Shown piece after piece: positions 33,368-58,494 of a DNA stretch of 64,000 nt. The notes under the pieces are model-generated. The model was not told the DNA's origin. It searched no databases and saw only the letters and a program-made list of their open reading frames with translations. The stretch is from Candidatus Heimdallarchaeota archaeon (GTDB taxonomy: Archaea; Asgardarchaeota; Heimdallarchaeia; JABLTI01). The translations under genes and the position numbers were made by a program. Each line of letters starts with the position of its first letter. The stretch's first letter is position 1. The stretch covers positions 32,001 through 96,000 of the forward strand of contig JABCTZ010000011.1 in the NCBI GenBank assembly GCA_018238155.1. Direction: 5' to 3'.

Positions 33368-33417
33368 AAAGAGAAAAGAAAGTGGTGGACCGGATGGAAT
33401 TTGAATCCATGATCTCC
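33368..33417 (-). repeat. tRNA-Ala 3'-end repeat R1 (with U-rich trailer)
   Basis: 29/29 identical to the tRNA 3' end, flanked by AAAGAGAAAAGAAAG. Confidence 0.97.
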
Positions 33418-33499
33418 ATTACAAACCATTGACTTTACTACTTGATATACGGGTTTCTGAATTGTAATACTAAAATTAAACTCCTTATCTAATTCAATT

Positions 33500-33674
33500 A
33501 ATTAGTCAAATCAGAAAGGAATATTTCAAAATCTCTATCTGATTTTAGAAATACAAAAACTTCTTCTTTCAAAATTTCTTCTAACAATGGAAATTTTTCA
33601 AGATCAATAAGTGGTAATGTTTCCAATGTAAATTCATTGTCTTTTTCAAGTGCATAAACAATCGCATTTATTGA
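33500..33674 (-). pseudogene. Orphan 3' fragment of an unrelated gene
   Basis: Startless frame SINAIVYALEKDNEFTLETLPLIDLEKFPLLEEILKEEVFVFLKSDRDFEIFLSDLTN*. Confidence 0.5.
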
Positions 33675-34115
33675 TCAATACAGGTTCTTCCGGAAGTGGT
33701 TCACCTTCGTCTGTTTTATGTCAAAGACATAGACCGCTCGGAAATAGATCCCTTTTTCGTTGACTTCCTCGCCTGTTCGGTCATCGAGACGTTTCTTCTC
33801 GTATGTGCATGGTGCTAAGATAGCAATTCCTTTCTCACCTTTTCTTACGAATCGGTTGAGCTTTTTCCACTTGTTGATTCTGACATCTTTTTTAGGGGTG
33901 TATCCAGCAACAAGGGAAGCGTTCGATTGCTGACATAGAATTAACAGAATATTGTTGTAGGAGTATTTGTGGAACTTGGACATCAATTGGAGATGCTTTT
34001 ACATTTCCTCTGAGATGCGAGCTTTTTCAGTTTGGTTGGCAAGTTCGTCGATAGCGTCTGTTATTTGCTCTTTTAGATCAGCTTGTTTTTGCTTCCAATC
34101 TTTTTTTGCCGTTAT
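33675..34115 (-). pseudogene. ArdC-like (DUF1738) ssDNA-binding/antirestriction protein pseudogene
   Basis: FHKYSYNNILLI..Q, W..LNR.VRKGEKGI.ILAP, VFDI.QT; ATA at the probable start after GAGGT, in-frame TAA at 33999-34001, frameshift before EGEPLPE, truncated. Confidence 0.85.
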
Positions 34116-34375
34116 CGGATAGACCTCTTTAGGTTTTGGTTTATTAAGTCAATAATTAATAGAGATGAAGATAGAACTGATCCTGTTAAGCTAAAGAGAT
34201 TCTTCGAACTCTAGGTATTAAAAATGAGCAAAAATGATTTTGTCCTATTAGTCCATATTTTAATAGCAACAACTGCCACACGATAAAATTGAAAAGAAGG
34301 AAAGAACGAGGGGGAAAAGAGGATTTGTTAATTGAATTATTTTAAAATGATTACTAAAATAGTGCTTAAATTAAT

Positions 34376-37330: not shown

Positions 37331-37350
37331 GAAGGATTATAAAAGACGGA

Positions 37351-37400
37351 AATTAGAAAAGAAAGTGGTGGACCGAGTGGAATTTGAATCCACGTCCTCT
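37351..37400 (-). repeat. tRNA-Ala 3'-end repeat R2
   Basis: AGAAAAGAAAG-TGGTGGACCGAGTGGAATTTGAATCCACG; 26/29 to the tRNA core. Confidence 0.93.
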
Positions 37401-37422
37401 TTTTTGAAATGGAAAACTGAAA

Positions 37423-38991
37423 TCATTTGCGTTTTATGTAAAGAACAATAACTGCAAGCAGTACAACAGTCATTATACCTAGGAACCCATACAAAAATGT
37501 TGGTTGTACAGGTTCGAGTGGCTCAATAAATTTCGTCACAAAACATTCACTCTTGGCACTTTCACGGTCAACCGCATTTATCATTGGAAAATCATCTGAA
37601 TATGTTATGCCCACAATATAACAATAGCCATTATTAGTTACAGCAATATCCCGACCTTCATCTCCCGAGCTCCCTCCAAGATAGGTGCTCCAAAGTAAAA
37701 CACCATCTAATGAGAATTTTGATGCAAAGACATCATAGCCATCGTTTTTAGTAAAATCATAAGCGTTTTTAGTCGGAAAATTCGTTGATGCGGTATAACC
37801 TGTAATATAGCAACTATCATCTTTTGATGTGGTAATTGCGCAACCTCTGTCAGGACCATTTCCACCAAGAAATGTGCTCCATAGCAAACCTCCACTTGCA
37901 GAAAATTTGGCAACAAACGCATCTCCCCAATCATCGTACGTCTCATTAAAGGCATTTTGTACTGGAAATTCACTAGAAACTGTATAGCCCGTCACATAAC
38001 AACTTCCATCACTTGCAGCAGTAATACTATGACCTACATCCCACCACACCCCACCAAGAAAGGTACTCCACAAAAGTGAACCCTCAGTGGAAAATTTAGA
38101 TATATAAGTATCCGAATCACCATTATATGAGTCATCAAATGCATTCTTCACTGGAAAATCAACTGAGTCAGTTTCACCAGTCACATAACAACTCCCATCA
38201 TTTGACACAACAATATCTCCTACACGCTCCGAATAACTCCCTCCTAAATATGTGCTCCAAAGTAACCCCCCTTCTGTATCAAACTTGGAAACAAAAACGT
38301 CATACCCGCCATTATACGTATCACTATAGGCTTCTTTTGTTGGAAAATTAACAGATGAGGTTCTACCTGTGATATAGCAACTCCCATCTTTAGCAACAGA
38401 GATTCCTTGTGCTCTATCAAAATCATTGCCACCAAAGTAGGTGCTCCAAAGTAAAACACCATCTGATGAGAACTTTGAAACAAAAACATCTTCATAACCA
38501 CTAAAAGTACTGTTAAACGCATTTTTGGTTGGAAAATTGCTTGAATTAGTGTTTCCCAAAACATAGCAGCTTCCATCATCTCCCGCAGCAATAGCAAAAG
38601 CTCGATCCCGACTACTCCCTCCAAGATAAGAACTAAAGAGCAGGGAACCATCAAAAGCAAATTTAGTGATAAATGCATCGAGATTACCACCGAGAGTTTC
38701 ATCAAAAGCATTTTTTAAGGGAAAATCATTGGATCCTGTCAGCCCGGTGACATAACACTCTCCCTTGTCGGTTATTGTAGCACTATAGCCATGATCTTTA
38801 TCCTTCCCCCCTAGAAAAGTACTGAAATCAATAGTAAGATTAGCAGACAAAATAGCATTTACATATGGATTTATTTTCACGCTGTTTTTTGTAAAACTAT
38901 ATTGCTGCAGAATTGGTATTAGATTCCCAAAAATTAGTACAAAACCTATGCAACAGACCAGAATTAAATGACTTTTTTTTCTCAACTTCAA
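37423..38991 (-). CDS. Secreted/surface SBBP-repeat beta-propeller protein
   Basis: About 7 repeats of WSTYLGG..D.G..I....DGSCYVTG.T.S.NFP; signal peptide and C-terminal TM anchor. Confidence 0.92.
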   Translation of the reverse strand: MKLRKKSHLILVCCIGFVLIFGNLIPILQQYSFTKNSVKINPYVNAILSANLTIDFSTFLGGKDKDHGYSATITDKGECYVTGLTGSNDFPLKNAFDETLGGNLDAFITKFAFDGSLLFSSYLGGSSRDRAFAIAAGDDGSCYVLGNTNSSNFPTKNAFNSTFSGYEDVFVSKFSSDGVLLWSTYFGGNDFDRAQGISVAKDGSCYITGRTSSVNFPTKEAYSDTYNGGYDVFVSKFDTEGGLLWSTYLGGSYSERVGDIVVSNDGSCYVTGETDSVDFPVKNAFDDSYNGDSDTYISKFSTEGSLLWSTFLGGVWWDVGHSITAASDGSCYVTGYTVSSEFPVQNAFNETYDDWGDAFVAKFSASGGLLWSTFLGGNGPDRGCAITTSKDDSCYITGYTASTNFPTKNAYDFTKNDGYDVFASKFSLDGVLLWSTYLGGSSGDEGRDIAVTNNGYCYIVGITYSDDFPMINAVDRESAKSECFVTKFIEPLEPVQPTFLYGFLGIMTVVLLAVIVLYIKRK

Positions 38992-39160
38992 ATCCCCAAA
39001 TGTTAATTAAGTAATTTACTAAAAAAAGTTATTTTCATAAAATTTCCGTCGTAATCACTAATGAACAATGTTGCTATCTATCATTTTTTTTAATGCTAGA
39101 CTTTTATTAATTGATGTTTTTTTTGACTTTTCACTTATTTTATTCTCTTCTAAAAAAGAA

Positions 39161-39182
39161 AAGGAATCCCAAAAGATTCCCT
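39161..39182 (-). terminator. Hairpin plus U-tract after the peptidase gene
   Basis: AAGGAATC-CCAAAA-GATTCCTT followed on the minus strand by TTCTTTTTT. Confidence 0.55.
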
Positions 39183-39190
39183 TATCTATG

Positions 39191-40105
39191 TTAATCAAAC
39201 CAAGTGTAGCTTGAATAGTCTCTTTTTTGTGAATTCTGATCAGAGCACTCATCTTCTGCATCTTCCCATGCTTCTACCGCAGTATCTTCTACTTCAACAG
39301 CATCAAAGAAGTAATATGAGAATTCTCCTTCTTGATTTGGATATCCTGTACGGAAGTCTGCTTCATGAGAAGTATCTGTAGAAGACATTGCTAAATAGGG
39401 ACTTGCAGTAAAATCTGTTGCCCAAGTACCGGAATAACAGGAATCAACAAGCAGACATTTTCGAGCCGAATCCCAATTATCCATATAGGATTTAAATGTG
39501 TCTGAGTAAACTTGTGAATTTTCATTTGATTTGAAATAGGTGTAAGATTTTCCTTCAGAACTATCGTATTCTCCATGACCAATAATATAGCAGAAAAGAG
39601 TATCGGCAGGACGTTCATAGTCATCAACTGTATCACAATCATCACTAACATCATCACTATTAGCAAATTTGAAATATTTTGTATATCCCTCATCATCTAG
39701 TATCTCTTCGTATATATCTATCGTATCCTCATTGCATGCATCATAGGCATAGAAAAAGACAGCAATTTTCTCAGTGATCGCATCAAGTTCGAAATCATTT
39801 GTACCTCCAGAATAGACTATTTTTGTATCAGTATCCCAACGGTAATTCTTCACTACAGATAAATAATAAGGTGAGTTGCCGCTTAATGTCACAGAAAGAC
39901 TATATTCACCTTGACCGTTTGTTGTTGTTGAACCAAGGATATTGAAATAACTATCGGCTAGAACAATTGATGCGCCACTCAATGGATCGCCATATTCACT
40001 TTCAACTGTTCCAGTAAAGTTCGTTGCTCCACGCACATTAATATTTGTGCTCATCATACCAACAAATAGAAAAACTAACATCATAATTCCTAATTTCTTT
40101 TTCAA
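39191..40105 (-). CDS. Secreted clan CD (caspase/legumain-like) cysteine peptidase with carboxypeptidase-regulatory-like N-domain
   Basis: Signal peptide; G.V....G.PLSGA.I..TTTN.QGEY; catalytic dyad IIGHG and LVDSCYSG. Confidence 0.85.
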   Translation of the reverse strand: MKKKLGIMMLVFLFVGMMSTNINVRGATNFTGTVESEYGDPLSGASIVLADSYFNILGSTTTNGQGEYSLSVTLSGNSPYYLSVVKNYRWDTDTKIVYSGGTNDFELDAITEKIAVFFYAYDACNEDTIDIYEEILDDEGYTKYFKFANSDDVSDDCDTVDDYERPADTLFCYIIGHGEYDSSEGKSYTYFKSNENSQVYSDTFKSYMDNWDSARKCLLVDSCYSGTWATDFTASPYLAMSSTDTSHEADFRTGYPNQEGEFSYYFFDAVEVEDTAVEAWEDAEDECSDQNSQKRDYSSYTWFD

Positions 40106-41330: not shown

Positions 41331-41360
41331 TAGAAATCCTCACTCTTTCCTAGTGTTATC

Positions 41361-41661: not shown

Positions 41662-44598
41662 ATGAGAAGGAAGTGGCTAATGATAAAGGAAATTGAAAGT
41701 AAACTTGAAGAATTTCTATCTTTTGCAAAAAAATTGTCTGGTAGAGAAAAACAAGAAGCCCAAACTTTCTTGAACCATTTATTCGAAGCATTTGGACATG
41801 AAGGGGTTATTGAGTGTGGAGCTTCTTTTGAAACCTCAATAAAAATCGAGAACAAAACCTATTATGCAGATTTGTTTTGACCTGAAAAAGTATTAATAGA
41901 AATGAAATCAAGAGGGGAAGATTTAAACAAACATATAAGTCAAGCTAAATTCTACTGGATAAATATCTATAAAATGCGACCTTCTTATGTCATTTTGTGT
42001 AATTTTGATGAATTTTGGATATTTGATTGGAACAAACAACCCGATCCAATTGATAAAATACATATAGATAATTTAGTAATTAGATGGAGAGCTTTATCAT
42101 TTCTTTACACTGGTGGAGATATAAAACCTATATTCAATAATGATAGAGTTGCTGTTACAGAAGTAGCAGCACAAAAAATAGCAAAATTATATTTGAGTCT
42201 AATAAAGAGAGGTGTAAGTCATGAAAAAGCTCAAATGTTTACACTTCAATGTTTAGTTTGTTTTTTTGCTGAAGATACTGGTTTATTTCCAGTCCGAGGT
42301 TTTTTCACAGAATTAATCCAAGATTGTATAAATGGAGCTAATAGTTACGATCTTTTTAAATTACTTTTTACTAAGATGAATTCAACAAAAAAAGAAACAG
42401 GAGGTAGATTTAAAGAAGTTTCATATTTCGATGGTGGTATTTTTGAAATCATACAACCTATTGAATTAAACAAGAGTGAATTGGAAAATTTACTCGCAGT
42501 AGCTCTTCATGATTGGTCTAAAATCCAACCTGCTATTTTTGGCAATATATTTGAATCAAGTCTAAGAAAAGATGAACGTCATAAATATGGTGCTCATTAT
42601 ACAAGAGAATCAGACATTATGAAAATAATTGAGCCAACTATTCTGCGACCGATTAGATTAAAAATTAATGAGGTAAAATCACTAAAAGATTTGGAGAAGA
42701 TTTGGATTTCTTTAAGTAAAATGAGAATTCTAGATCCTGCTTGTGGAAGTGGTAATTTTCTCTATATAGCGTTTAGGGAACTAAAATATTTAGAACTTGA
42801 TTTAATACGAAAAATGATAACTGATTATCCATCACTTGAGAAGAAAAAATTCTCTTTACAATCAAAAATTAAATCAACACAATTTTTCGGAATTGATACT
42901 AATCCTTTTGCAATAGAACTTGCCAAAATAACATTATCATTCGCAAAGAAAGATGCAATAGATACTTTTAATGAATTCAATAATCAGCGTTTGTTGCATT
43001 ATGATGGTGAGAGTCCTTTGCCTTTTGATAATCTAGATACAAATTTCATCATTGATGATGCCCTATTTATTGAATGGCCGGTTGCAGATATAATCATTGG
43101 TAATCCTCCATTTCAGTCTAAAAATAAGATGATTGAAGAATTTGGACCAGAATATGTGGAGAAGTTAAGAAAACAATTTCCAGATGTAAATGGTAGAGTA
43201 GATTACTGTGTTTATTGGTTCCGCAAAGCTCATAACAAGTTAAAAGAAGGTGGTAAAGCAGGGCTTGTTGGTACAAATACAATCAGACAAACTTATTCAA
43301 AAAAAGATGGGTTAGAGTATATTATTGAAAATAATGGGACTATTATAGAAGCTGTTTCCACTATGCCATGGAGTGGGGAAGCTCAAGTTCACGTTTCCAT
43401 TGTAAATTGGATTAAGGGAGAGATAGATGAATCTAAGAATAAGAAATTACTATTCTATGATGAGAAAAACCCCAATAATTTACTTGAGGAATATGATCTA
43501 GAATGGATACCTTCTTCTCTATCACAAAAAATAGATGTCATCTCAGCTAAAGAATTGATTACAAATAAGAATTCAGGAACTTGTTACCAAGGTCAAACTC
43601 ATGGACACAGCGGGTTTATTTTATCTCGACAACAAGCTAAAGATATTTTCAAAAGGGAACCTGAAGCAAGAGAAATAATTTTTCCTTACTTAATAGCGAA
43701 CGCAATGCTGGGTAATATAAAATCTCGTCCAGACCGATTAGTGATAGATTTTCAATCGATGTCTTTATTTGATGCACAGAGATTTAAAACCCCATTTAAA
43801 ATAGTAAAACAAAAAGTTCTACCAACAATTGAACAAAAAGCTGATGAAGAAAAGAAGTTATTTGAAAAACTAAAGAAAAAAGATACCGTTCGTCAAAATC
43901 ATTTAAAGAAATGGTGGTTATTTTGGAGAACTAGAAAGGATTTAATAAATCAAATTCAGACTATTCCAAGATACATTGCTTGTAGTCAGGTTGCAAAAAG
44001 ATCAATATTTGATTTTGTCTCATCAAATATTAGACTAAATGCTGCACTAATAGCATTTCCTTTAAGTGATGATTATTCATTTGGTATTTTACAGAGTTTA
44101 TTTCATTGGGAATGGATAAAAGCACGCTGTTCAACTTTGAAAGGAGATTATAGATATACAATAACAACAATCTATAATACATTTCCCTGGCCTCAATTTG
44201 GTATTATAAACGATATTGATATTCAAGATAACTTGGATGAAAAAATTGAACTTTGTATTGATGTAGCAAATAAAGCTAGAGAATTAAGAGTAACGCGGAA
44301 CAAACTAAGAGACGAAAAACATTTGTCATTAAGAGATATGTATAGAACACTAGAATTGCCTGGAGATAATATTCTAAGAAAATTACATGAAGAACTAGAT
44401 AACGCTGTAAGAAAAGCTTATTCCTATGGATTAATAGATACAGAAAAAACTTTTGATCCATTAAAACTACTTCTTCAATTGAATAACGCTTGTAAACATT
44501 TTGAAGAAGAAAATAAAAACCTTATAAAACCTGGGTTGCCATTTTTCTGTAAGAAAAAAGAATTCTATTCAGATGATTGTATAAGTTATCAAATATAA
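41662..44598 (+). pseudogene. MmeI-like type IIL restriction-modification enzyme interrupted by one in-frame TGA (41878-41880)
   Basis: E..EAQTF, ADLF*PEKVLIEMKSRG, GAHYT, LDPACGSGNFL, GNPPF, TFPWP; the two ORFs are in the same frame. Confidence 0.92.
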
Positions 44599-44674: not shown

Positions 44675-44721
44675 AAAGAGAAAAGAATGTGGCGGACACA
44701 GTAGAATATGAATCCAAGCTC
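44675..44721 (-). repeat. tRNA-Ala 3'-end repeat R3 (degenerate)
   Basis: AAAGAGAAAAGAATG-TGGCGGACACAGTAGAATATGAATCCAAG; 21/29 core plus 14/15 trailer match to R1. Confidence 0.8.
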
Positions 44722-44726
44722 TTTTG

Positions 44727-45596: not shown

Positions 45597-45604
45597 TGTT
45601 TTTC

Positions 45605-45775: not shown

Positions 45776-45918
45776 TAATTGCACCTATATAATTATTTGA
45801 TTCAAGTAAAATAAACCTTTCCTTAAAATCAATTAAAAATAACAATATTGGTAAAACCCAATAATTTGGGAACCCCTTAAATAAAACCTTCTCCTATATA
45901 TCTATAGGTGATAAGAAA

Positions 45919-48503: not shown

Positions 48504-48555
48504 ACAGTTTTTCTTTTTCAATATCTGTTTTTGAAGTGGAGAATATAACACTAGA

Positions 48556-50190
48556 TTGGAAGTACATTTTGAAATGAACCAACAAAACTTTCTCACCTGG
48601 AAAACTGATCCATTTCTTATAGATCCAATACCCACAAGGAAAAATGATTGGTTAACTGCGAATAAGCTATTAGAACAAAAAGAGCAGTCAAAAATTTTCC
48701 TCAAAAATGATATCCTCAACCTTTATTCCATAATGGTTCGCAAAAACGATTTTCTTGCCGGAGAACGCCTTATTCAACGATTGCCTTATGTCTCTTTACC
48801 ACCTGATTTAGCTTCTAGTTTGCGTAAACCGTCACTAAAATTAGCTGAGAGATGCCATTACTATTTTCAAGATACTGCTATCAATTATTCTATCAAGAAG
48901 TGGCAGCAAAAGATTATTGATTATACGGAGAAGCAGCATCGACTACCATTTCCTTTATTTAGGATGAGTGATTTCTGGCAAGACTTTCTAATGCAAAAGT
49001 ACGTTCCCTTCCAATCTGCACGAGGAGAAACCTTCCATTTACCAACTATTCTCTCTAAAGATTTAGCTTATTTCTTAGGAGTAGTTATTGGCGATGGTCA
49101 TTTGAACTATTATAATATCGAATTAGTGGACTTTTCCCAAGAGCACACGATTATGTTACAAAAATTAGCCATGAAATTATTTGGTATTGAGGGTGCAATT
49201 TCTGGTGAGAAAAAAGTGTGGTTGTTACATTTGAATAATAAATGGCTTGTACGGTTAGCTAATTTCCTAACGGATCAACCAATTACCGGGAAAAAATACC
49301 ATGCTTTACGCGAACCACTTATTTTTACGTCGGATGAGAATCTTCGATGGGAATTCTGGAATGGAGTATTAGATGCAGATGGCAGCTATAAATCACAGAT
49401 CAATTTCTGTTCTTCATCAAAAAAATTCATAGAAGCATTTGGCTCATTTCTAGATTCATACAATTTTGACTATAAAATACGAGAATTAACCTCTGACTTG
49501 GGGAATGGTTATTCTTTAAATATTAAAGCGAAACATAAACATTTTTTTAGCCAATTCATACAACCAAGACATCCAATAAAGCAAGAAGATTTTTCACAGC
49601 ACTTAAATCGTCAATCAAACAAAAATCTCAATAATCCTACATTCAAGCGTATGTATATTAAAGATATTAATCCTCAGACACTAGTTACTATTAATGATAC
49701 TGCTTTTTTTAATTTCGAACTCATACCTATGCTCAATGTCACAAATTGCACCAGCTATTTACGAAAGTCTCGTGAAACTAACCAATGGACACAGCAAGAT
49801 TTAGCTAATTTTCTAGAAATTCAAAAAGGACGATTAGCAGCATATGAATACACCGGAAATCTCCCTATTGCTTATCTTGTCAAACTTCTTCCAATTATCC
49901 CTAAGAGTACTCCTCATTTAATGCTATTTCTAAAACGGAACAAACATAATTATTTTCGTTCACGAAAAACAATTGCTAAGTTAGATCTAGAACCAACTAG
50001 TAGTTTGCTTTCTTTAATGAAATCATTAGTGTTCTGTAAGGATTATATTACGATTAAAAATAAAAGACCAATTATTACTGAATTGAAAGACCAATTTGAA
50101 ATAGAAATTGTGAAAAAGAATCTAATTAAAAATTCGGTTTTGCATCGATTTATTAAAACATTTTTTTTGCTGAGTACAGAACGAGAATAA
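48556..50190 (+). CDS. Free-standing two-motif LAGLIDADG protein with XRE-type HTH
   Basis: LAYFLGVVIGDG, FWNGVLDADGS; LRKSRE..WTQQDLA.FL......AAYE; no intein splice motifs. Confidence 0.85.
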   Translation: MEVHFEMNQQNFLTWKTDPFLIDPIPTRKNDWLTANKLLEQKEQSKIFLKNDILNLYSIMVRKNDFLAGERLIQRLPYVSLPPDLASSLRKPSLKLAERCHYYFQDTAINYSIKKWQQKIIDYTEKQHRLPFPLFRMSDFWQDFLMQKYVPFQSARGETFHLPTILSKDLAYFLGVVIGDGHLNYYNIELVDFSQEHTIMLQKLAMKLFGIEGAISGEKKVWLLHLNNKWLVRLANFLTDQPITGKKYHALREPLIFTSDENLRWEFWNGVLDADGSYKSQINFCSSSKKFIEAFGSFLDSYNFDYKIRELTSDLGNGYSLNIKAKHKHFFSQFIQPRHPIKQEDFSQHLNRQSNKNLNNPTFKRMYIKDINPQTLVTINDTAFFNFELIPMLNVTNCTSYLRKSRETNQWTQQDLANFLEIQKGRLAAYEYTGNLPIAYLVKLLPIIPKSTPHLMLFLKRNKHNYFRSRKTIAKLDLEPTSSLLSLMKSLVFCKDYITIKNKRPIITELKDQFEIEIVKKNLIKNSVLHRFIKTFFLLSTERE

Positions 50191-50250
50191 TGTTTAGAGA
50201 TGGTTAAGAGTTCCTCTGTCATTTTGAAAAATTGAAGTATTTTGGAAATG

Positions 50251-50372
50251 CTCTCACAGCTCAGAAGTGAGAGTGAATGTTCTTGACCAAAACTCTATCG
50301 CTGAACGCTCCACTCGTGCGACCTAAAAGCCCACGCTTCGGTGGTCTTTTTTAACGGTCGTCTTCGACACGA
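50251..50372. other. GC-richer multi-hairpin element (candidate ncRNA or cis-acting site)
   Basis: CTCTCAC/GTGAGAG; nested TCGTG-CGACC-AAAAG-CCAC [GCTTCG] GTGG-CTTTT-GGTCG-CACGA. Confidence 0.55.
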
Positions 50373-50636
50373 AAACCAGAGAGAAATCAAAGAGATGATT
50401 TTGTCGTGAAAAAATACCCAAGAAAGAACATGAAAATAGGAAAAAAAGCAGAAAAAGAGATTCTAAAGGGACTTAGAATAACCTTCCGCTATACAAAAAG
50501 AAGCCTTCTCCTGCCTTATTTTCAGGCTGATTTTTCGAGACTTTTTGTTTTTTGACGAATTCTTAACATACAGTAAATTCTTGTTTCTGTTTTTTGGCGA
50601 ATTTTGTGCTTTTTAAACAAAATTTGATAGAATTAG

Positions 50637-51275
50637 GTGAGAATAATGACTTTGGAATCATCTGTGACGCAAGAACAGCATATTCATAAGGATTTATCTA
50701 GTGCTAAAGTTAAAGTGACAAACACAGTTCAAACTTTCTGTAAATACTTAATTGACAGCGCATTGAATCATGGCAGATATTATTATCCTTCATTGAATAC
50801 TTTCAAATTTGATGAGAAATTGACATTAGTCTCAAGAACAATAGATCGCTTAGTGAGATTTTTAGTTCAAGTTAATATTCTAACTAAATTAACACGATCG
50901 AAAACACAAGCTTATCAAGTCAATGTCAATAATCCATTATTCCACCTTATTTTGAGAATATATCATCCTGTTCATCCAATTACCATTTGTACAAAACAAG
51001 ACATCATTTCAATAAAAAGAATTGAAGAACTACAAAGCGGTGTAGAGCACTTGAAACATGTTTTTAGTCTATTAGAATCAAAAGAGGATCATAGATTAGA
51101 ACTTCATAGAGATTTGTTGGATGAAATAACTGAATATACTACAGTCTCAGATATTTCAACAGAAGATCTAAAAGAGAAATTAAGGTCAATCATCTTAGGC
51201 TCTAGCACAAGTGCAGAGATTAACAACTTTTCCATATTAAATGAATTTTTGCTAGAGTATAACAAGGGGGATTAA
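50637..51275 (+). CDS. wHTH + coiled-coil protein, first gene of the Cas1-like operon
   Basis: SRTIDRLVRFLVQVNIL...YQVN..NP; AGGTGA SD. Confidence 0.65.
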   Translation: MRIMTLESSVTQEQHIHKDLSSAKVKVTNTVQTFCKYLIDSALNHGRYYYPSLNTFKFDEKLTLVSRTIDRLVRFLVQVNILTKLTRSKTQAYQVNVNNPLFHLILRIYHPVHPITICTKQDIISIKRIEELQSGVEHLKHVFSLLESKEDHRLELHRDLLDEITEYTTVSDISTEDLKEKLRSIILGSSTSAEINNFSILNEFLLEYNKGD

Positions 51276-51276
51276 T

Positions 51277-52842
51277 TTGGGATTCATAAACACTCTACCT
51301 AAAGCCATCACTACCGTTCTTCGAGATTATTCTTTTCCTTCTGGTGTTGATAAAGACACCATTCGCAAAGCTGTTAGGTGTGATGAAGACCTGCTTTTTG
51401 TTACACCAGATCTAGATGAGCAATTGCAGGTTGCAGTTACTTTAGCTCTTCTAAATGCTCGATTTGCCGACTCATCATCTATGATTATTGTGCGAACTTC
51501 TGATGATGCAAGAAAAATATACAGTATACTCAACCCACAACATCAGGTTAACGTTTCTAGTGATAGTGTAACAAATGAAACTATTTCTCCACCAATAGAT
51601 AAATATGCCATTCGTGTTGCTTCCACTTTTTCCAAATTTAAGGGAAATAGCTTCTCTTCAGCTAATGATTGTATAATAATTACAAGCTATGATTGCTTGC
51701 TTCGAAATTTACTCTATCGAAAAAGTTCCGAAGTGGATTTAAAGAACAGAATTACTTTACCACATACAAATGCCTATATTTTCGTTGACCCATTTGGCGA
51801 AAATAGATCTCTACGAAGAGCTTTAGAGAGCTTCATAACTTTTGATATAGATAGCATATTGTTTTTCAAGAGAAGAACAAATAACCTTAACATCAGAATG
51901 CATTATATCTCACCTGGCATAGTTTCTTTAGATGAACAGAAGAATATGCTAAAAGTAACATCAACAGTCAAAATTTCTGGAAATCTTGAGCTTGACTTTA
52001 GTTTTTCAACGGATAGACATGACATTAGAGAAAATCTCCAATCTGTTCTACCATATTTAATGTTATTAAGACTTTATTCTGGGCATCCAACTAAAAAACA
52101 ATTAACACGTCGAGTGCAAAATTCGGTTAATTATCGTTTACTTCAAAACACTCACGAATCAAAAACTAATCCTGAATTTCTTCAGGAAGTTTTAATTGAG
52201 ACATTGTTTCAATCAACTGATTCTACTGAATGCTTATTTGAATCGTATCAGCAAAGTCTTGGAAAATTCGCTCTTGCATTAAGAGCTAATGGAAATTCAG
52301 GAAAATATATCCTCACACCATTTGGCAAGAAGTTTCTCATAGCCTCAACATATTTTAAAGAAATACAAGATGATCCCATTAGTGTTATATTGGATATTAA
52401 AAACAGAACACAGAATGATATTCTAGATTGGAACAGCATCTCAGAAATATTCCATAATTTTACTAATGGAAAATTAGCTTACGATGATCTGCAAATACTG
52501 CTAGGGATATTAAAAACAGAAGCGAATGTTGAAGATGAGACAATTGCTAACATTCTATCCAGAACACAAGATAGTTATTCTGTTTTTAAAGTCTGTAGAT
52601 TACTTGCAAGCTTTCAGGATCATATGACACCTGAAGCAAAAAAGAGCTTCAATATCATTAGCAAGGCATTAGGGCAAAATCTTGACACAGTAAATGAACC
52701 GTTAGTAGGAAAGAAAGATAGATTAGCAATCGAGCAAGCGATAAAAGAAGAACTAGAATTTGCTACAGATCCAATGACAAAAGCACAAATTGCTCTAAAT
52801 CTCTCATTATTGAGTTCTGATGTAAAACAAGCAATTGGTTAA
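51277..52842 (+). CDS. Degenerate SF2 (Ski2/Hel308-like) helicase-fold protein, probably catalytically dead
   Basis: Eroded motifs (LLFVTP, MIIVRT..A..IY, IIITSYD.L), YILTPFG wing, C-terminal HTH; no GKT or DExH. Confidence 0.5.
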   Translation: MGFINTLPKAITTVLRDYSFPSGVDKDTIRKAVRCDEDLLFVTPDLDEQLQVAVTLALLNARFADSSSMIIVRTSDDARKIYSILNPQHQVNVSSDSVTNETISPPIDKYAIRVASTFSKFKGNSFSSANDCIIITSYDCLLRNLLYRKSSEVDLKNRITLPHTNAYIFVDPFGENRSLRRALESFITFDIDSILFFKRRTNNLNIRMHYISPGIVSLDEQKNMLKVTSTVKISGNLELDFSFSTDRHDIRENLQSVLPYLMLLRLYSGHPTKKQLTRRVQNSVNYRLLQNTHESKTNPEFLQEVLIETLFQSTDSTECLFESYQQSLGKFALALRANGNSGKYILTPFGKKFLIASTYFKEIQDDPISVILDIKNRTQNDILDWNSISEIFHNFTNGKLAYDDLQILLGILKTEANVEDETIANILSRTQDSYSVFKVCRLLASFQDHMTPEAKKSFNIISKALGQNLDTVNEPLVGKKDRLAIEQAIKEELEFATDPMTKAQIALNLSLLSSDVKQAIG

Positions 52843-53350
52843 TATTAAAAAAAATAGTTCGTTACCACTAAAAACTGTTACAGGAAAACCACCAATAGGG
52901 AGAAATGTTACGTACTATTCTACAAAAGAAATCCCAGAGCATTTCTATAAAAAATGCGGTGACTGTTACTATTTTAGCAAAAATTATTGCATTTTCTGGC
53001 GACGAGTGAAAGAGACTGCAGAGCGAAAAGTCCCAAAAGACAAAATGGGCTATATTTCAACCTCAATTCTTAGAAAAAATACTGTTGCCTGTGAAGCATT
53101 TCTAGAAGTAGAAACAATGGTGATACATTTCACTATTGATGAATTCAATAAAACAGTAACAAAAAGATTTGATGGCTATACTGAAGATGGGGAGGAAAAA
53201 TTTACTCATTTTTGCCCAATCTGTAGTAAGCAAGGAGAAATGGTACCGCTAAAGGCATTAGGCAATGCTGCGTTTCCTCAGCAGGGATCAACTCCGACAA
53301 GATGTCCAAGATGTGGTTCATCATTTAAGCTTTATCAGGAAAGAAATTGA
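52835..53350 (+). CDS. Cys-rich Zn-finger protein (possibly a frameshifted continuation of the upstream ORF)
   Basis: CGDC..C..C, CPIC, CPRC. Confidence 0.7.
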   Translation: MVNIKKNSSLPLKTVTGKPPIGRNVTYYSTKEIPEHFYKKCGDCYYFSKNYCIFWRRVKETAERKVPKDKMGYISTSILRKNTVACEAFLEVETMVIHFTIDEFNKTVTKRFDGYTEDGEEKFTHFCPICSKQGEMVPLKALGNAAFPQQGSTPTRCPRCGSSFKLYQERN

Positions 53351-53366
53351 AACATTTAGTAGTTAA

Positions 53367-54872
53367 GTGATAAAAATGACTGAAAAAAATACTGGAAAAC
53401 AACAAATAAAATGTGTGAAAGATAGCAGTCATATACTTTATGACCGGATATACAATTTAACAGGTTTGGCAGCTGAAGAGATAGAAGAAGCAAGAACTAA
53501 TTTAGGAACTCCTATTTATCAAGGCTATGATGTACGATTGATCGATGATGATCTGTTTATTGGAGATGTAAGGTATAAACTAAAGGATATTAAATTCATC
53601 TTTGATTATGCAGGCATTCAAGAAGAGATTAAACAACGATTGCTTGATTATGGCTGTTATTATGAACGGAAAACTAATTTGAGTGGATGGTTTAATGTCG
53701 AAAGAATCGAGCCAAAAAGAGCTGTTTATGTTGATGCTATTAGATTAAGCAATGGGTTCAACAATCTCTATCTAAAATCAGTGATCAAGAGTGACCTTAG
53801 CATTATCTTCGCACTGCAAGGAATGATACCCGATCAAAGAGTGCTAAAGAAGTATGTAGATAAAATTGGTGATGCATATCTCTATGGCTATCACAGTCAT
53901 GCAAATAAGCTATGCAATTCAGCAGAAGGTTTAGCAGCAGATGTTCTCTGGGAATTCACTAACAAGCTGATAGAACCTTACAACTTTAAAATAAGTAATC
54001 GAATTTCTGACCGACTCTGCCAATTGAGACGCATGGTTGGAAATTATAGCAGTATGGCAAAAACAGCTACAGATGCCTTATTTAACACCACATACCAACT
54101 CTTTGAGGAAGAAATATGGAAGATTCTTGAAGAGAAAAAAATTAATTATTTGGGAGTTGGCGGTTTTTCACATTTCAGTTATTATTCAGACCTTTCTTGG
54201 ATGGGATTGCCATTAGATCTTGGTGATGCATTAAAGAAAGGAGGGCACTATACATTAGTCGATACTATATTAGCTGAAGAAATAACTCATGAAGATATTA
54301 AGCGGCTAACTGCATTCAAAGGAGAGGATAATTATACTGTTACGAAATATGGGTGTGACATCCTCTATGAGAAGAAGGAAGAACTTTTCGAAAGCTCATG
54401 CTTTTATCGTGGGAAACAATATTCATCTTTTAGAGAAGCTTGCAGGGAAGAAATTGACAAATTTGATCGCCTATTATCGAATATCGGTGATAGATTAGAA
54501 GAGGAGCATCTGTCTATTAAAAGCCCTGATCTAGGGAATAATTTAGCCGTTAAACTCTGGCGATTAACGTTAGACTGGGAATATTTGCCAGCAAAATTGA
54601 GGGAGAACCTGGGAGAAAGTGTTTTTCAAATATGTCAAGAAGAGATCCAAAAGCTTGACTTTCAGCCATTAGTATGGATGCGATCGAAACACATAGAACA
54701 AAGAGTGAATCAGGAAATTGCTAATTTTGAGGAACTTGCATTCTTATTTACTGATAGGGAAGAAAAGCACCACCAAAAACATGGCAGAAAAATCGGTCAA
54801 TTATCACCAATCACTAAAGAATTCAGTGAAACATTATTGGAGTTACCTGTATCATGGATAAACTTGGAGTAA
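53367..54872 (+). CDS. cas1: Highly divergent Cas1-fold integrase (Asgard aCas1-like)
   Basis: AEGLAA..W (E187), A.TATDALFNTTY..E (cf. DPVNALLNYGY), GFSH (H269), L.LDLGD (D284/D287), then EIT.EDI, in Cas1 order and spacing. Confidence 0.75.
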   Translation: MIKMTEKNTGKQQIKCVKDSSHILYDRIYNLTGLAAEEIEEARTNLGTPIYQGYDVRLIDDDLFIGDVRYKLKDIKFIFDYAGIQEEIKQRLLDYGCYYERKTNLSGWFNVERIEPKRAVYVDAIRLSNGFNNLYLKSVIKSDLSIIFALQGMIPDQRVLKKYVDKIGDAYLYGYHSHANKLCNSAEGLAADVLWEFTNKLIEPYNFKISNRISDRLCQLRRMVGNYSSMAKTATDALFNTTYQLFEEEIWKILEEKKINYLGVGGFSHFSYYSDLSWMGLPLDLGDALKKGGHYTLVDTILAEEITHEDIKRLTAFKGEDNYTVTKYGCDILYEKKEELFESSCFYRGKQYSSFREACREEIDKFDRLLSNIGDRLEEEHLSIKSPDLGNNLAVKLWRLTLDWEYLPAKLRENLGESVFQICQEEIQKLDFQPLVWMRSKHIEQRVNQEIANFEELAFLFTDREEKHHQKHGRKIGQLSPITKEFSETLLELPVSWINLE

Positions 54873-55093
54873 TGCTCTTTTTGCTAAAGGAGTACAATGA
54901 ATTTGGCACTATTCATCCAAAGAGCGCAAAAGAGATCTCTATAGAGGTGGAATTGGCTCCCAGTGAAACATATCTTACTCTTGAGACATTACAGCAAGAT
55001 GGATTGATCTGGCGAGTGGGTAGGAAAAATCTTTACAGGTATGGTATTAAGGAAGAATCTTTAGCTCATCTAAACAAGCTATTCTCTGCTTAA
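54854..55093 (+). CDS. Small winged-helix protein
   Basis: SAKEISIEVEL.PSETY..LE.L..DGLI....RY. Confidence 0.8.
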   Translation: MDKLGVMLFLLKEYNEFGTIHPKSAKEISIEVELAPSETYLTLETLQQDGLIWRVGRKNLYRYGIKEESLAHLNKLFSA

Positions 55094-55107
55094 TTAATGG
55101 TAAACAA

Positions 55108-55404
55108 TTGCCGTCTGAGATGTTAATTGATTATCAGAAGCTTGATGAAGTAGCAGAAAATTATGAGAAGAAGTTTGAGATAGAGAAACAAGAAGGGCTC
55201 CTTGTGAAGGAGATCAAGGCATTGCTTAGTCAACTGGTCTTTATTGAATATAATAACCGATTCGACATGATTGATTCAGCTGTTGATGATATTGTTGAGG
55301 CTTGTTCTCCTGAAAATTTAGATGAAAAATTCGAGCAATTTTTAGAGGATAAGCTTGAATCAATTTGGGAATATATTATCAGTGCAAGATTGGTGGAGGG
55401 ATAA
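55108..55404 (+). CDS. Small acidic helical protein
   Basis: 98 aa, tightly packed in the operon. Confidence 0.65.
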   Translation: MPSEMLIDYQKLDEVAENYEKKFEIEKQEGLLVKEIKALLSQLVFIEYNNRFDMIDSAVDDIVEACSPENLDEKFEQFLEDKLESIWEYIISARLVEG

Positions 55405-55407
55405 GGA

Positions 55408-57735
55408 ATGTCTCGAGGAATTCTTGTAAAATCGGTTTTTGATTTGCCACCATCAGTGTGTAAAGTATCTGATTGCTATGTAGGCGATGACGAAGTTGGA
55501 TTAGAGAATATAGGAAAAAGTATCCAAGAGCTATTCTCACACAAGCTCTACTCTTATCAATTAGAAGCAATTAGAACTGTACTCAAAGGAAATGATTGTT
55601 TCCTTGCTGTTGGAACAGGTTCTGGAAAATCTGAAGCATTTTTATTCCCAATTTTGGAGGATATCGTTGCCGGAAAAATTAATTGTGCGATTATAATTTA
55701 TCCAACAAAACAACTAGCAGAGGATCAAGAACAACGCATTGCAAAATACTGCAATAAGATTCATGAAACGACCGGCAAAAGAATTACTTACAGTAGGTAC
55801 AATGGTGATTTAACTCGAAAGGAAATTGACTTTGTAGAAAAAAGTAAACCAAATATTATTCTTGCAACTATTGACAAATTATTTTATCGTTTCTTTAAGG
55901 AAGGCAATGAAGACTTTCTTGATTGGCTGCTCAATGCTGGTGCTTTCGTTGTTGATGAGATTCATGCCGGCTCAGGAGGATATTTAGATCATGTTCGAGA
56001 AATAATTTCAATCTTGAAAAAGATTAATCCAACTTTAAGAGTTATTCTTGCTTCCGCTACTGTAAAGGAAGTGGAAACTTTTCGCGATAAATTTCTCCCA
56101 TCAGCTCAAATAATTACAGGAAATGCTACAAGAGGTTCTGTTAGAGTGATGATTCTTCAGCCAGAGTCAATAGAAGATCTGCTTTTGGAAAAGATAGACC
56201 CCTATTTGTGCAAAGTAAAAGGAGTTTGCGTAATTTTTGTTGATGATATTCGAAAGGTAGGTGAGTTGGTTGCAAAATGTAATGAACTGTATAAGAAAAA
56301 AACAAACATACCTGATGAAATCCTAAGAATACATTCACCATTTGCTTGCATTAATAGTCAGTTAAATAGTCAAGAGAAAACATACGTTGTAAAAGGAGTT
56401 CATAATGGTACAATTAGGTTTGTGTTTACAACGTCCTTATTGGAACTGGGGATGGACATACCAAATATCGTTCATATAATAAATATTTCTTGGCCCATTA
56501 CGGGAGTTAATGGTCTATTGCAACGATTGGGGAGATTGCGATTTGTAGACCTTTCCGAGAAAAAGAATTTCTCATTAGTGCTAAATCCAGAAAGAACAAT
56601 TGATGAATATTACTTGAGCCATCCTGAAAAAATAGAAGAAATCATGATGAAAAACAAGACTGAACGAATATTATTTGACTCAAAATCATTGCAAAGAGCA
56701 CAAGCATTCGTTCTCTTAAGACTTGTTCTTGGTGTAACTAAAATTAAAGATATCTTATCCCTATGCACAGATGAGCTAGATAACGGAATTACACGAACCG
56801 CAATATCATTACTTTTCGCCAAAGGTTTGTTATCAACTGAAAATCATCACTTGCCGTTTCTGGAAAGAACCTTAATTATAGCAGAAAGAAATGAAGTTAA
56901 TGCTTTTATTCGAAAGCATCGTATTCGCTCAACTGAATACCAATGGGAAATAATACTGAAGAATTCCAAAAATCAAGAAGAAAAAATCGCTTCAATAGAT
57001 GAACGACGAATAATCTTTTCAGCTTTGCAAAGGAATTTGTTACATCTAGGAAGCAAAGGGAATGTTTTTCGAGTAAAAAGTTTGACTAATGAAAAAGTGT
57101 TCGTTGAAAAGCTAAATATCATCAAAACAAATATTGAACGAAACAAAGTAAAGCCACCAATTTTTATTATCGATGGTCAATCTAGAACGCAGCAATTTGA
57201 ACAGCTAAATATTAGATTTGGAAGGATGATCATTCGCTGGGAAACAAGTGAAATAAAGGAATATTCTCGAGATGGACAATTACTTGAAAACCAAATGAAA
57301 AAGTCAACTCAAGGAAATGACACATTAGTAGTTACTGATAATGAAAAGCGTCAAAATCACATTTGGGATGAAAAAACAAGTGGAGTGCTCATAGAATTTG
57401 TGAACATCTCAAAAGCTCTTACCAACAAACAAAAGAAACAATCACTAAGGCTATTTAGAGAATTACTGGTGAAAAGTATTGAGCTAGAGCTTCACATCTC
57501 AGAATCATCATTTCGCACATATTTGAATAATTTTGAAAACAAAATTGCTCTTTATGATCGAGGTGGGGAGCTGGGAAATGCTGAAGCAGTTTTCACACAA
57601 ATAAAACGAGTGCTAAAGCACATGCTCAGCTTATTGCTTGAGAATACAAACGACTCTATACTCCCTCTAGTTGGCAATATCTCGGAAAAATCAATAGAAA
57701 TAACCAAAAAAATGTTAGAGGAGATGGTAAAGTAA
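55408..57735 (+). CDS. DEAD/DEAH-box SF2 helicase (MrfA/Hrq1/Lhr-like)
   Basis: YQ, GTGSGKSEAF, YPTK.LA.DQ, DEIH, SAT, TSLLELGMDI, QRLGR; C-terminal YD..GG.G. Confidence 0.93.
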   Translation: MSRGILVKSVFDLPPSVCKVSDCYVGDDEVGLENIGKSIQELFSHKLYSYQLEAIRTVLKGNDCFLAVGTGSGKSEAFLFPILEDIVAGKINCAIIIYPTKQLAEDQEQRIAKYCNKIHETTGKRITYSRYNGDLTRKEIDFVEKSKPNIILATIDKLFYRFFKEGNEDFLDWLLNAGAFVVDEIHAGSGGYLDHVREIISILKKINPTLRVILASATVKEVETFRDKFLPSAQIITGNATRGSVRVMILQPESIEDLLLEKIDPYLCKVKGVCVIFVDDIRKVGELVAKCNELYKKKTNIPDEILRIHSPFACINSQLNSQEKTYVVKGVHNGTIRFVFTTSLLELGMDIPNIVHIINISWPITGVNGLLQRLGRLRFVDLSEKKNFSLVLNPERTIDEYYLSHPEKIEEIMMKNKTERILFDSKSLQRAQAFVLLRLVLGVTKIKDILSLCTDELDNGITRTAISLLFAKGLLSTENHHLPFLERTLIIAERNEVNAFIRKHRIRSTEYQWEIILKNSKNQEEKIASIDERRIIFSALQRNLLHLGSKGNVFRVKSLTNEKVFVEKLNIIKTNIERNKVKPPIFIIDGQSRTQQFEQLNIRFGRMIIRWETSEIKEYSRDGQLLENQMKKSTQGNDTLVVTDNEKRQNHIWDEKTSGVLIEFVNISKALTNKQKKQSLRLFRELLVKSIELELHISESSFRTYLNNFENKIALYDRGGELGNAEAVFTQIKRVLKHMLSLLLENTNDSILPLVGNISEKSIEITKKMLEEMVK

Positions 57736-57736
57736 A

Positions 57737-58408
57737 ATGCCTGATACAGTAATAATTGGTGATGTTCATCTTGGAGCAGATGGTTGTTTAAAGGAGGAAT
57801 TCAAAGAAGCACTGCTGAGCGTTGCAGAAGAAGTGGATCTAATTCTATTCAATGGTGACTTTATCGATAATTATGGAGAGAAGGGAAAAAAAGCTCTTGA
57901 ACAATTCTTAGAATGGATAGACAATAAAAGTTGGAAAGAAAAAATAGTCTTCATAACTGGTGGTATGGGTCACGAGGGAAATATTCTATTTGATTGTCCT
58001 ACAATTCAAATTTTGCCTTGGGCAATTTTAAACACAAAAGAAGGGCGAATTATTGTCTGTCATGGACATAATATTGGTCTGGTGAAAAAAGATGATGAGA
58101 CGTGGGTAGAAGCATCCTGTCGACTTAAGCAGCGCTTAGTGCGCAATGGTTCTGAGTTCTTGCCAGAGATTTTATCGACAGACAAGATTATTATCAGCCA
58201 CACTCATGTACCATTTTACAAAATGGATAATGGTATGTTTGCAACAGGGGGATGGCGAATAAAAGAGGACTGGTCTGAGGACTATATCAGAAGGAATGTT
58301 GGAGTGTTTATCATAATAGATGATGAAGATAGAGATGACCCAATAAAAATGAAAAGATGGTTAAATGATAAAAAGGGAAGAAAAATTGGTGGACCGGATG
58401 GAATTTGA
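57737..58408 (+). CDS. Calcineurin-like metallophosphoesterase
   Basis: GDVHLG, NGDFID, GHE, HGH, SHTH; last codons overlap the tRNA-Ala 3' end in antisense. Confidence 0.92.
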   Translation: MPDTVIIGDVHLGADGCLKEEFKEALLSVAEEVDLILFNGDFIDNYGEKGKKALEQFLEWIDNKSWKEKIVFITGGMGHEGNILFDCPTIQILPWAILNTKEGRIIVCHGHNIGLVKKDDETWVEASCRLKQRLVRNGSEFLPEILSTDKIIISHTHVPFYKMDNGMFATGGWRIKEDWSEDYIRRNVGVFIIIDDEDRDDPIKMKRWLNDKKGRKIGGPDGI

Positions 58409-58494
58409 ATCCATGGCCTCCTCAATTTTTTTCTTATAGGACGCATCCTTTAAGATTGCAAATGAGGCGATCTACCAGTCTGATCTACCGGCCC
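58387..58494 (-). tRNA. tRNA-Ala(TGC) with a canonical anticodon-loop intron (~31 nt)
   Basis: GGGCCGG/CCGGTCC with G3:U70, CCTCA-TT TGC A-[intron]-TGAGG, ATGGATTCAAATTCCAT, ACCA. Confidence 0.95.

Follow-up and report, generated by a model that had tools for sequence, protein, structure and literature searches.

The 64,000-nucleotide (nt) stretch analyzed here, referred to as the window, covers positions 32,001 to 96,000 of contig JABCTZ010000011.1 (assembly GCA_018238155.1) from a Candidatus Heimdallarchaeota archaeon. It contains a 25-kb island of mobile-element genes and debris, bounded by a gene for an Arf/Rag-like small GTPase on one side and an intron-bearing tRNA-Ala gene on the other, and partitioned by three partial copies of the tRNA 3' end (R1, R2, and R3). 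The block closest to the tRNA carries a nearly intact gene cluster that includes a very divergent homologue of Cas1, and we consider it fairly probable that the island arose through repeated integration of such clusters at the tRNA gene. In the following, G000 is the genome of the window and G009 that of its closest relative, L-numbers denote Heimdall loci or metagenome contigs, and C-numbers denote contigs.

The putative integration target is matched by the Rfam tRNA model RF00005 at 58390-58494 on the minus strand (52.7 bits) and was identified by eye as tRNA-Ala(UGC) with a G3:U70 pair. Because CCA is encoded, its 3' end can be placed at 58387, pointing towards lower coordinates. ARAGORN misses this gene because of a 31-nt intron, and intron-bearing tRNAs, which this program overlooks, were identified by Rfam together with reading by eye. 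Several Heimdall tRNA genes that adjoin elements elsewhere have one or two introns, one of them in the T-arm (L002:15040-15200, L008:52-168, and L007:4106-4218), and are missed by ARAGORN as well as by Rfam at the gathering threshold, with the gene in L008 scoring 20.7 bits against 29.

The last 29 nt of tRNA-Ala recur without mismatch at 33383 (R1) and with three mismatches at 37366 (R2), where shuffled sequences are expected to give 0.00 matches, and a degenerate copy with eight mismatches (R3) marks the distal boundary of the intact element. All three copies have the orientation of the tRNA, with spacings of 3983, 7324, and 13697 bp, and R1 lies at the native junction with the chromosome, 34 nt past the stop codon of the gene for the Arf-like GTPase. 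They are accompanied by a purine-rich trailer, aaagagaaaagaaag at R1, agaaaagaaag at R2, and aaagagaaaagaatg at R3, which is absent at the intact tRNA, where gggaagaaaaat takes its place. A previous reading of the window made from the sequence alone (the sequence-only reading) had reported the three copies with these positions, identities (29/29, 26/29, and 21/29), orientation, and block sizes, as well as a shared trailer missing at the intact gene; all of this was confirmed. Its figures for the ordered fall in identity also stand, with two qualifications. R2 differs from the window tRNA by changes that compensate one another in the T-stem and agrees with the tRNA-Ala allele of G009 at 28 of 29 positions; therefore, these differences are allelic rather than a result of decay. 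Moreover, G009 has its own array at the same tRNA-Ala with four extra repeats, all near-perfect and without any identity gradient.

The block between R3 and the tRNA (block 3) is composed of a left-end gene for a protein with a PD-ExK-like motif and a cluster that encodes, in this order, proteins of 711 and 150 amino acids (aa), a LAGLIDADG-like protein of 544 aa, a 212-aa protein, a ~690-aa protein, the Cas1 homologue, a ~185-aa winged helix-turn-helix (wHTH) protein, an Lhr/MrfA-type helicase, and a calcineurin-like metallophosphoesterase (MPE). Coordinates of these and all other features of the island are listed in Table 1. The ~690-aa gene is frameshifted at a run of eight A (about 52829-52836), where tblastn switches frame, and is unbroken (680-709 aa) in L002, L003, L005, and L007; likewise, the two pieces of the wHTH gene are fused in L001-L003, L005, and L007. 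These two frameshifts may represent early decay or assembly error. The PD-ExK-like gene is also present in L003 and missing from L005 and G009. A 290-aa gene beside the distal repeat of L005 was considered as its homologue and rejected, as it encodes a tetratricopeptide repeat (TPR) protein. The left-end gene of the elements is therefore variable, since L005 has a TPR protein where the window has the PD-ExK-like gene. Atlas look-ups for the 711-aa and 289-aa proteins returned weak nuclease-type leads only, all below 0.9. A paralogue of the helicase on contig C19 has an MZB domain.

Table 1. Features of the tRNA-Ala island and its chromosomal flanks (positions within the window; aa, amino acids; nt, nucleotides)
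Feature	Coordinates	Strand	Basis and remarks
Arf/Rag-like small GTPase gene, chromosomal left flank	32065..33348	+	Pfam; orthologues adjoin tRNA-Ala in empty sites
R1, distal copy of tRNA-Ala 3' end	33383..33417	-	29/29; 33/35 when extended
ArdC-N (antirestriction, single-stranded DNA-binding) fragment, 103 aa	33675..33986	-	Pfam ArdcN 2e-10, partial profile coverage; mobile-element debris
Right-end relic of older element: last 16 MPE codons, ~100 nt spacer, trailer	34136..34321	+	Repeat after it lost
UvrD/Rep-family helicase, 855 aa	34376..36943	-	Pfam; 83% nt identity to G009
R2	37366..37394	-	26/29 against window tRNA-Ala
SBBP beta-propeller (522 aa) and CarboxypepD_reg/C13-like protein (304 aa)	37423..40105	-	Pfam; 92% nt identity to G009; cargo
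MmeI-family type IIL restriction-modification gene, cargo	41662..44598	+	Pfam MmeI domains; 92.7% nt identity to G009
R3, degenerate, distal boundary of intact element	44690..44718	-	21/29, 8 mismatches
Block 3, nearly intact Cas1-homologue element, 13.7 kb	44719..58386	+	PD-ExK-like gene and nine-gene cluster reading towards tRNA
289-aa protein, PD...ExK nuclease-like motif	44727..45596	-	Left end; phrog_8571; 30-50% identical to L003 gene at same position
711-aa protein, weak NERD/Hjc-like nuclease signals C-terminally	45919..48054	+	Pfam NERD 7e-4; PDB Hjc 0.22
150-aa conserved protein, no assigned function	48051..48503	+	Kept in L002, L003, L007
544-aa LAGLIDADG-like/HTH protein	48556..50190	+	Pfam LAGLIDADG_3 2.5e-5; kept in L001, L003, L007, L019, L023
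212-aa conserved protein, no assigned function	50637..51275	+	Sequence conservation
~690-aa partner, C-terminal zinc ribbons	51277..53350	+	Zinc-ribbon matches; frameshifted here into 521 + 171 aa
Cas1-fold protein (aCas1), 501 aa, candidate integrase	53367..54872	+	AlphaFold2, Foldseek, VIA; motifs
~185-aa wHTH protein	54854..55404	+	TrmB/F-93 wHTH hints; frameshift near 55084 gives 79 + 98 aa
775-aa DEAD/DEAH superfamily 2 helicase, Lhr/MrfA type	55408..57735	+	Pfam DEAD 1.5e-28 and Helicase_C; NCBIfam and PADLOC matches
223-aa calcineurin-like MPE, last gene	57737..58408	+	Pfam Metallophos 1.6e-8; stop codon within tRNA 3' end
tRNA-Ala(UGC), 31-nt intron, encoded CCA	58387..58494	-	Candidate integration target, 3' end towards island; Rfam RF00005
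290-aa weakly Rce1-like (CAAX-protease type) protein gene, chromosomal right flank	58572..59444	-	Weak Pfam match; orthologues found

The assignment of the 501-aa protein to the Cas1 family, which had been proposed from the sequence alone, is supported by structure prediction. An AlphaFold2 model built on 20 homologues (predicted local distance difference test score, pLDDT, of 70) has the two-domain Cas1 fold, in which a beta domain at the N-terminus is joined to an alpha-helical catalytic domain at the C-terminus. The top 50 Foldseek matches listed were all Cas1 or casposase, the best being the M. mazei casposase (6opm, E 2.7e-7), and VIA-align to A. fulgidus Cas1 (4n06_B) gave a Z score of 18.2 over 249 residues (root-mean-square deviation 3.6 Å), with ranks 1-49 again all Cas1 or casposase. 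The catalytic residues of E. coli Cas1 are E141, H208, and D221. Their candidate counterparts in the 501-aa protein are E187, H269, and D284/D287, and E187, H269, and D284 are invariant among the 20 homologues. E187 lies within an EGxAA motif, and this segment is the sole hhalign match to the canonical Cas1 of the same genome. Iterated searches of the genome with hidden Markov models revealed eight very divergent Cas1 paralogues, all of which keep H269, D284, D/E287, and several Arg, Asn, and Gly positions; E187 is kept in seven of them and is Asp in the remaining one. Judging from these kept catalytic residues, the Cas1 homologue is probably active.

The protein has no match at 0.01 in Pfam or PADLOC, a sequence-profile search of PDB was also empty, and the matches in NCBIfam and PHROGs are at chance level (hisZ, 20 bits vs. 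272; an unnamed phrog, 0.029). The Pfam model Cas_Cas1 (PF01867) scores one of the 20 homologues at 0.024. Only 25 relatives were found when 1.84 billion cluster representatives were searched with a profile, and the same Pfam model scores two of them, both distant, at 1.2e-4 and 2.8e-3, narrowly missing the cut-off; IMG/VR contained no relative. Taken together, the predicted fold and the motifs identify the 501-aa protein as a genuine, very rare Cas1 homologue.

The cluster is a discrete unit with a patchy, multi-copy distribution. Five of ten genomes of the same genus have it, compared with none of 30 genomes from elsewhere in the class, and the number of matches to the Cas1 gene ranges from 0 to 6 per genome. 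Direct repeats derived from tRNA-Ala flank the unit in L003 (13.9 kb), and repeats derived from tRNA-Pro do so in L005 (14.2 kb). In L002, L008, and L009, its MPE gene ends at tRNA-Lys. Overall, the MPE end abuts the 3' end of one of these three tRNAs in 8 of 12 loci, always with the same convergent orientation. The direct repeats of the family include 29-35 nt of the tRNA and extend up to 46-71 nt with flanks, and the present-day copies are imperfect. Homologous operons beside tRNA 3'-end repeats in the same polarity, as the sequence-only reading anticipated, are thus found at tRNA-Ala, -Pro, and -Lys. Empty sites were also identified. In G008, the Arf-like gene, tRNA-Ala, and the right-flank gene lie inside 186 bp, in the order Arf-like gene, trailer, tRNA, and in G007 and G004 the distance from the Arf-like gene to the tRNA is 0.7-1.6 kb. 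No free or circular copy was found, and the contig ends of L008-L012 have no circular overlap. Among the sequencing runs listed, none contains more than 0.11 of the words sampled, and no RNA run with such words is listed.

This distribution bears on the central proposal of the sequence-only reading, namely that a resident Cas1 operon beside the tRNA inserts arbitrary multi-kb DNA at R1 and duplicates the repeat each time, in the manner of an integron or of a CRISPR (clustered regularly interspaced short palindromic repeats) array with gene-sized spacers. Although the Cas1 fold on which that proposal drew is real, the operon itself is bounded by repeats and occurs at tRNA-Ala, -Pro, and -Lys as well as at a CRISPR locus, so it appears to be the mobile unit rather than a resident machinery; in addition, Cas2 and a short regular spacing are lacking.

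The CRISPR locus is a single case. In the metagenome contigs L018 and L019, which agree at every position of the 2,564 nt of overlap that were compared, a family member with a Cas1 homologue 54% identical to the window copy lies between direct 37-nt CRISPR repeats (Rfam CRISPR-DR7) that are 14.3 kb apart (L018:8212-9901, L019:486-740). On one side is a run of three to four repeats beside a type I-B cas8b gene; on the other, an array of at least 23 repeats begins with a degenerate repeat 18 nt past the MPE stop codon. Identity between the two repeats that flank the element is 29/37. CRISPR repeats are natural targets of Cas1, and insertion of the element into a CRISPR array is possible; alternatively, its position between two arrays may be due to chance.

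The history of the window island can be traced by comparison with G009, whose chromosomal flanks are 82-88% identical to those of the window. UvrD (83% nt identity), the pair of SBBP and 304-aa genes (92%), and MmeI (92.7%) are common to both islands, yet the repeats of G009 divide this shared cargo differently. There, UvrD is flush between two repeats, 23-37 nt from each, MmeI is in the same block as the Cas1 element, and a relic of an MPE gene together with a repeat, DRd, separates the SBBP pair from MmeI. G009 has no counterpart of R3 or of the 289-aa gene in this comparison, and its Cas1 element is another variant, with 65-70% nt identity overall and 43% identity in the Cas1 protein.

Remnants of older elements adjoin the repeats. 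In G009, the spacer between the MPE stop codon and the intact tRNA ends in GGAAAAGAGAAAAGAAGG followed directly by TGG (the "type A" end). This right-end spacer recurs to the left of R2, which is orthologous to the G009 repeat DRc, over about 50 nt (37316-37365; 88-nt alignment at 82%), and as a shorter relic to the left of R3 (44672-44689, 17/18; matching flank 18-40 nt). The relic at 34136-34321 is 84-87% identical to both G009 right ends by blastn and matches 15 of 16 aa by tblastn. At the intact tRNA of the window, the MPE-end junction is of another kind (the "type B" end, GAAGAAAAAT followed directly by TGG), which G009 has at another repeat. Given the match to the G009 right-end spacer on the left of both R2 and R3, the inner repeats are best read as former junctions between an element and the tRNA.

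We therefore favor, as a moderately confident best explanation taken as a whole, that the unit represents a rare Heimdallarchaeial family of integrative elements of 13.7-14.3 kb, and that the island results from their tandem accretion and decay at a tRNA-Ala hot spot. Each insertion at the intact tRNA, with the MPE end towards it, would preserve a functional tRNA next to the element and place a 30-35-nt copy of the tRNA 3' end at the opposite boundary, and would push the older element outwards, turning the old junction (the right end of the older element plus the tRNA 3' end) into an inner repeat. Older elements would then lose their core by deletion and leave behind cargo (UvrD, the SBBP pair, and MmeI) and small relics. 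The trailer would correspond to the last part of the end of the older element, a sequence similar to the tract that natively follows the tRNA. Since the intact unit lies nearest to the tRNA and the debris is distal, the island appears to have grown at the tRNA, contrary to insertion at R1; the polarity is thus opposite to that expected from capture by a resident operon. The right-end relics before the inner repeats, the MPE relic in block 1, the allelic nature of the R2 differences, and the lack of an identity gradient in G009 likewise speak against such capture.

Further repeat arrays in the same genome, both on contig C19, extend the picture beyond tRNA-Ala. At C19:18154-38707 (L013), downstream of ppdK, genes for a helicase, an MZB protein, and a phosphoesterase accompany that of a distant, fused Cas1 homologue of 1212 aa. 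This element and a separate block with SBBP and 306-aa genes are delimited by three copies, each ~370 nt long, of the ppdK 3' end; the SBBP pair, 57% identical at the aa level, thus recurs as its own repeat-bounded block. At C19:9790-14158, four further copies of the 3' end of tRNA-Lys(CUU) lie downstream of the gene, all with GAAAATG before them, and separate unrelated blocks of 0.85-1.5 kb with small open reading frames (ORFs), mostly paired. By size and N-terminal sequence, these ORFs look toxin-antitoxin-like to the eye, and no ORF of integrase size was found in the blocks; the array is integron-like in look. Blocks without Cas1 could be deletion remnants, or cassettes without their own integrase that are moved in trans.

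It is these cassette-like blocks that give capture by a resident operon what appeal it retains: the small-ORF blocks at the four further tRNA-Lys copies contain no ORF of integrase size, UvrD in G009 is flush between two repeats, and the SBBP pair forms its own block at two targets. In addition, R1 is the best preserved of the repeats. Weighed against the mobility of the operon, the relics before R2 and R3, and the position of the intact block nearest to the tRNA, we consider capture at R1 very improbable. The alternative offered alongside it, serial integration of a casposon-like element, fits the relics and the repeat-bounded mobile unit better. A further reading would combine a CRISPR-type duplication of a ~30-37 bp target (a tRNA 3' end, or possibly a CRISPR repeat in one lineage) by the Asgard Cas1 homologue with head-to-tail arrays built by repeated use of the regenerated site and with cassettes moved in trans by the same enzymes, such as the two-ORF blocks at tRNA-Lys, UvrD, and the SBBP pair; we regard this combination as rather unlikely.

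If the island consists of integrated elements, the question arises which enzyme integrates them. The Cas1 homologue is the sole integrase-type fold found in the repeat-bounded units, and the cluster fills at least 85% of each. Tyrosine or serine recombinases and PolB had no match in the window (PF00589, PF00239, and PolB; Pfam on all island ORFs of at least 70 aa), and PolB was not detected in any element ORF either, with the genome's three PF00136 matches located on other contigs. A six-frame scan of the 4.08-Mb genome (91% complete) gave two PF00589 matches, neither in the window, and none for PF00239. Local alignments of element ends from the window, L003, and L005 revealed no terminal inverted repeats above the best shuffle. 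These window scans and end alignments bear out what had been noted by inspection, that recombinases of both types, PolB, and inverted termini are lacking. An inverted match of 16/17 between 44748-44764 and 58370-58386 was rejected, as it is coding on both sides and reflects KKGK(E/K)N in two genes. Further, Cas2 was not found among the element ORFs by Pfam, PADLOC, NCBIfam, and other profile scans; the ~185-aa protein encoded after the Cas1 homologue has its wHTH in the N-terminal part.

A genome-wide association points in the same direction. Scored with a 25-nt tail and up to five mismatches, extra downstream 3' copies are present for 4 of 35 tRNA genes; a Cas1 homologue lies within 20 kb of three of these four, compared with 2 of the 31 others (Fisher p 0.006; small numbers), and five of the eight Cas1 paralogues are located downstream of a tRNA gene at a distance of no more than 20 kb. 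At the tRNA-Val locus, no repeats were found by this criterion. From this association and the lack of another recombinase, we infer that the Cas1 homologue acts as the integrase. Integration might proceed by target duplication, as for Cas1, or by exchange with an element-borne copy of the target, as for attP.

Several points weigh against the accretion of Cas1-driven elements. R1, the oldest repeat in this model, is perfect with respect to the present tRNA allele, while R2 carries the allele of a relative and R3 is the most degenerate; a perfect R1 needs an extra event, such as gene conversion or a renewed integration of the complete island by way of R1 and the tRNA. The repeats, at 30-35 nt and up to about 48 nt with the trailer, exceed the 14-15-bp duplications of casposons, and inverted termini are missing as described above. 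Repeats that extend from the T-arm or anticodon stem up to the tRNA 3' end are also what tyrosine integrases classically leave behind. At ppdK, the coding part of the ~370-nt copies is 74-77% identical, whereas the intact gene and the outermost copy have almost the same terminator; such mosaic copies suggest an element-borne target copy, through attP-like or homologous exchange, over plain target duplication, and we know of no attP-like exchange chemistry for Cas1. The helicase and nuclease genes could as well serve defence or repair. The window element, given its two frameshifts, may be inactive, and movement of the unit is deduced from comparison of genomes.

Part of this evidence would be accommodated if the elements were integrated by a tyrosine-type or unknown recombinase in trans, or by homologous recombination via element-borne target copies, with the Cas1-helicase-MPE cluster carried as defence or repair cargo. 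A very divergent or novel recombinase may have escaped the profile scans. The repeat geometry typical of attachment (att) sites in tRNA genes, the lack of inverted termini, the mosaic ppdK repeats, and element right ends that mimic the native tRNA trailer are all consistent with such a route, and a role as cargo finds some support in the match of the helicase to Lhr/MrfA, BrxH, and Cas3-type models, the defence-like neighbors MmeI and UvrD, and the weak Hjc/NERD-like signals in the 711-aa protein. However, the cluster makes up nearly the whole of each unit, in which no other recombinase fold was found, and a genome with two PF00589 matches and no serine recombinase has at least five different targets with repeats. 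Moreover, the eight paralogues keep their catalytic residues (with one E-to-D change), five of them are close downstream of tRNA genes, and one element lies between CRISPR repeats, a natural Cas1 substrate. We therefore consider integration by another route possible but unlikely, and retain the Cas1 homologue as the candidate integrase.

The closest known system is family 2 of the casposons. In Aciduliprofundum boonei and Methanosarcina mazei, these elements use a Cas1 integrase, insert at the 3' ends of tRNA-Pro or tRNA-Leu with regeneration of the target, form tandem arrays, and lack Cas2 (PMC9939771). The Heimdall elements resemble them in having a Cas1-family protein as the sole integrase candidate, a preference for tRNA 3' ends, regenerated targets and tandem arrays, and no Cas2. 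By contrast, they have no PolB, no terminal inverted repeats that could be found, and repeats of 29-35 nt or longer instead of 14-15 bp, and thus the family fails three defining features of casposons. Their Cas1 is also far more divergent, without a Pfam match, and is encoded with a different gene set, comprising a zinc-ribbon partner, wHTH proteins, an Lhr/MrfA helicase, an MPE, and a LAGLIDADG-like protein.

Divergent Asgard Cas1 homologues in proposed mobile elements are already known. They are extremely diverged, occur without arrays and Cas2, and were computationally predicted to be transposases or integrases of new repeat-flanked mobile elements (PMC8730458; PMC10691335, citing Makarova et al. 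2020, CRISPR J). The aCas1 and aCas1-TnpB loci (Altae-Tran et al. 2023, PMC10691335) share with the present family a very diverged Asgard Cas1 and the lack of Cas2; unlike the latter loci, the window element has no TnpB, although a TnpB gene lies near the related element in L001.

Resemblances to other systems are more partial. Genomic islands made by tyrosine integrases at tRNA genes likewise have direct repeats of tRNA 3' ends, tandem blocks with the newest next to the tRNA, defence-like cargo, and decaying older blocks, but no tyrosine integrase gene or fragment was found in the window island, and the two PF00589 matches of the genome are elsewhere. In CRISPR arrays and integrons, repeats in the same orientation also part unrelated inserts, here beside a Cas1-family gene and with blocks of one or two genes. 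Unlike spacers, however, the inserts of the window are 4.0, 7.3, and 13.7 kb long and include whole elements and relics, Cas2 is missing, and there is no leader-type polarity towards R1; unlike integrons, the island has no IntI or other tyrosine recombinase, and its repeats are tRNA-derived rather than attC-like.

A few further observations concern the cargo and the CRISPR arrays of the genome. Between window 33368-44716 and G009:C110, the blocks with the SBBP pair and MmeI have 92-93% identity, as opposed to 82-88% for the flanking chromosomal genes, and the higher identity of the island blocks hints at an exchange of segments after the lineages split. The MmeI gene reads as a 72-aa N-terminal piece (41662-41880) and an 898-aa body (41902-44598) and is perhaps interrupted. 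None of the spacers in the genome's three CRISPR arrays matches the island. One spacer of the array on C12 (~8747) perfectly matches C24:36311-36351 (41/41) in the same assembly, so that this sequence is a self-target or else belongs to a mobile element, integrated or co-binned.

CRISPR Cas1 is thought to derive from casposon-like transposons, and to our knowledge all casposases tested so far come from PolB-bearing elements with 14-15-bp duplications. If the Cas1 homologue described here is the integrase, it would widen the known range of Cas1-driven mobility to polymerase-less elements with flanking copies of 30-37 nt and a preference for tRNA 3' ends, and would offer a natural system in which to study the evolution of target choice and of duplication length in the direction of CRISPR adaptation. 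Should the CRISPR-type duplication considered above turn out to be true, the family would represent a living intermediate between casposons and CRISPR arrays, and at the same time a platform for cassettes. If the Cas1 homologue is not the integrase, the islands would require some integration mechanism as yet undescribed. Heimdall archaea are the archaeal lineage closest to eukaryotes, and their genomes carry variable, defence-rich tRNA islands while being nearly devoid of classical integrases; integration by the Cas1 homologue would explain how these islands arise.

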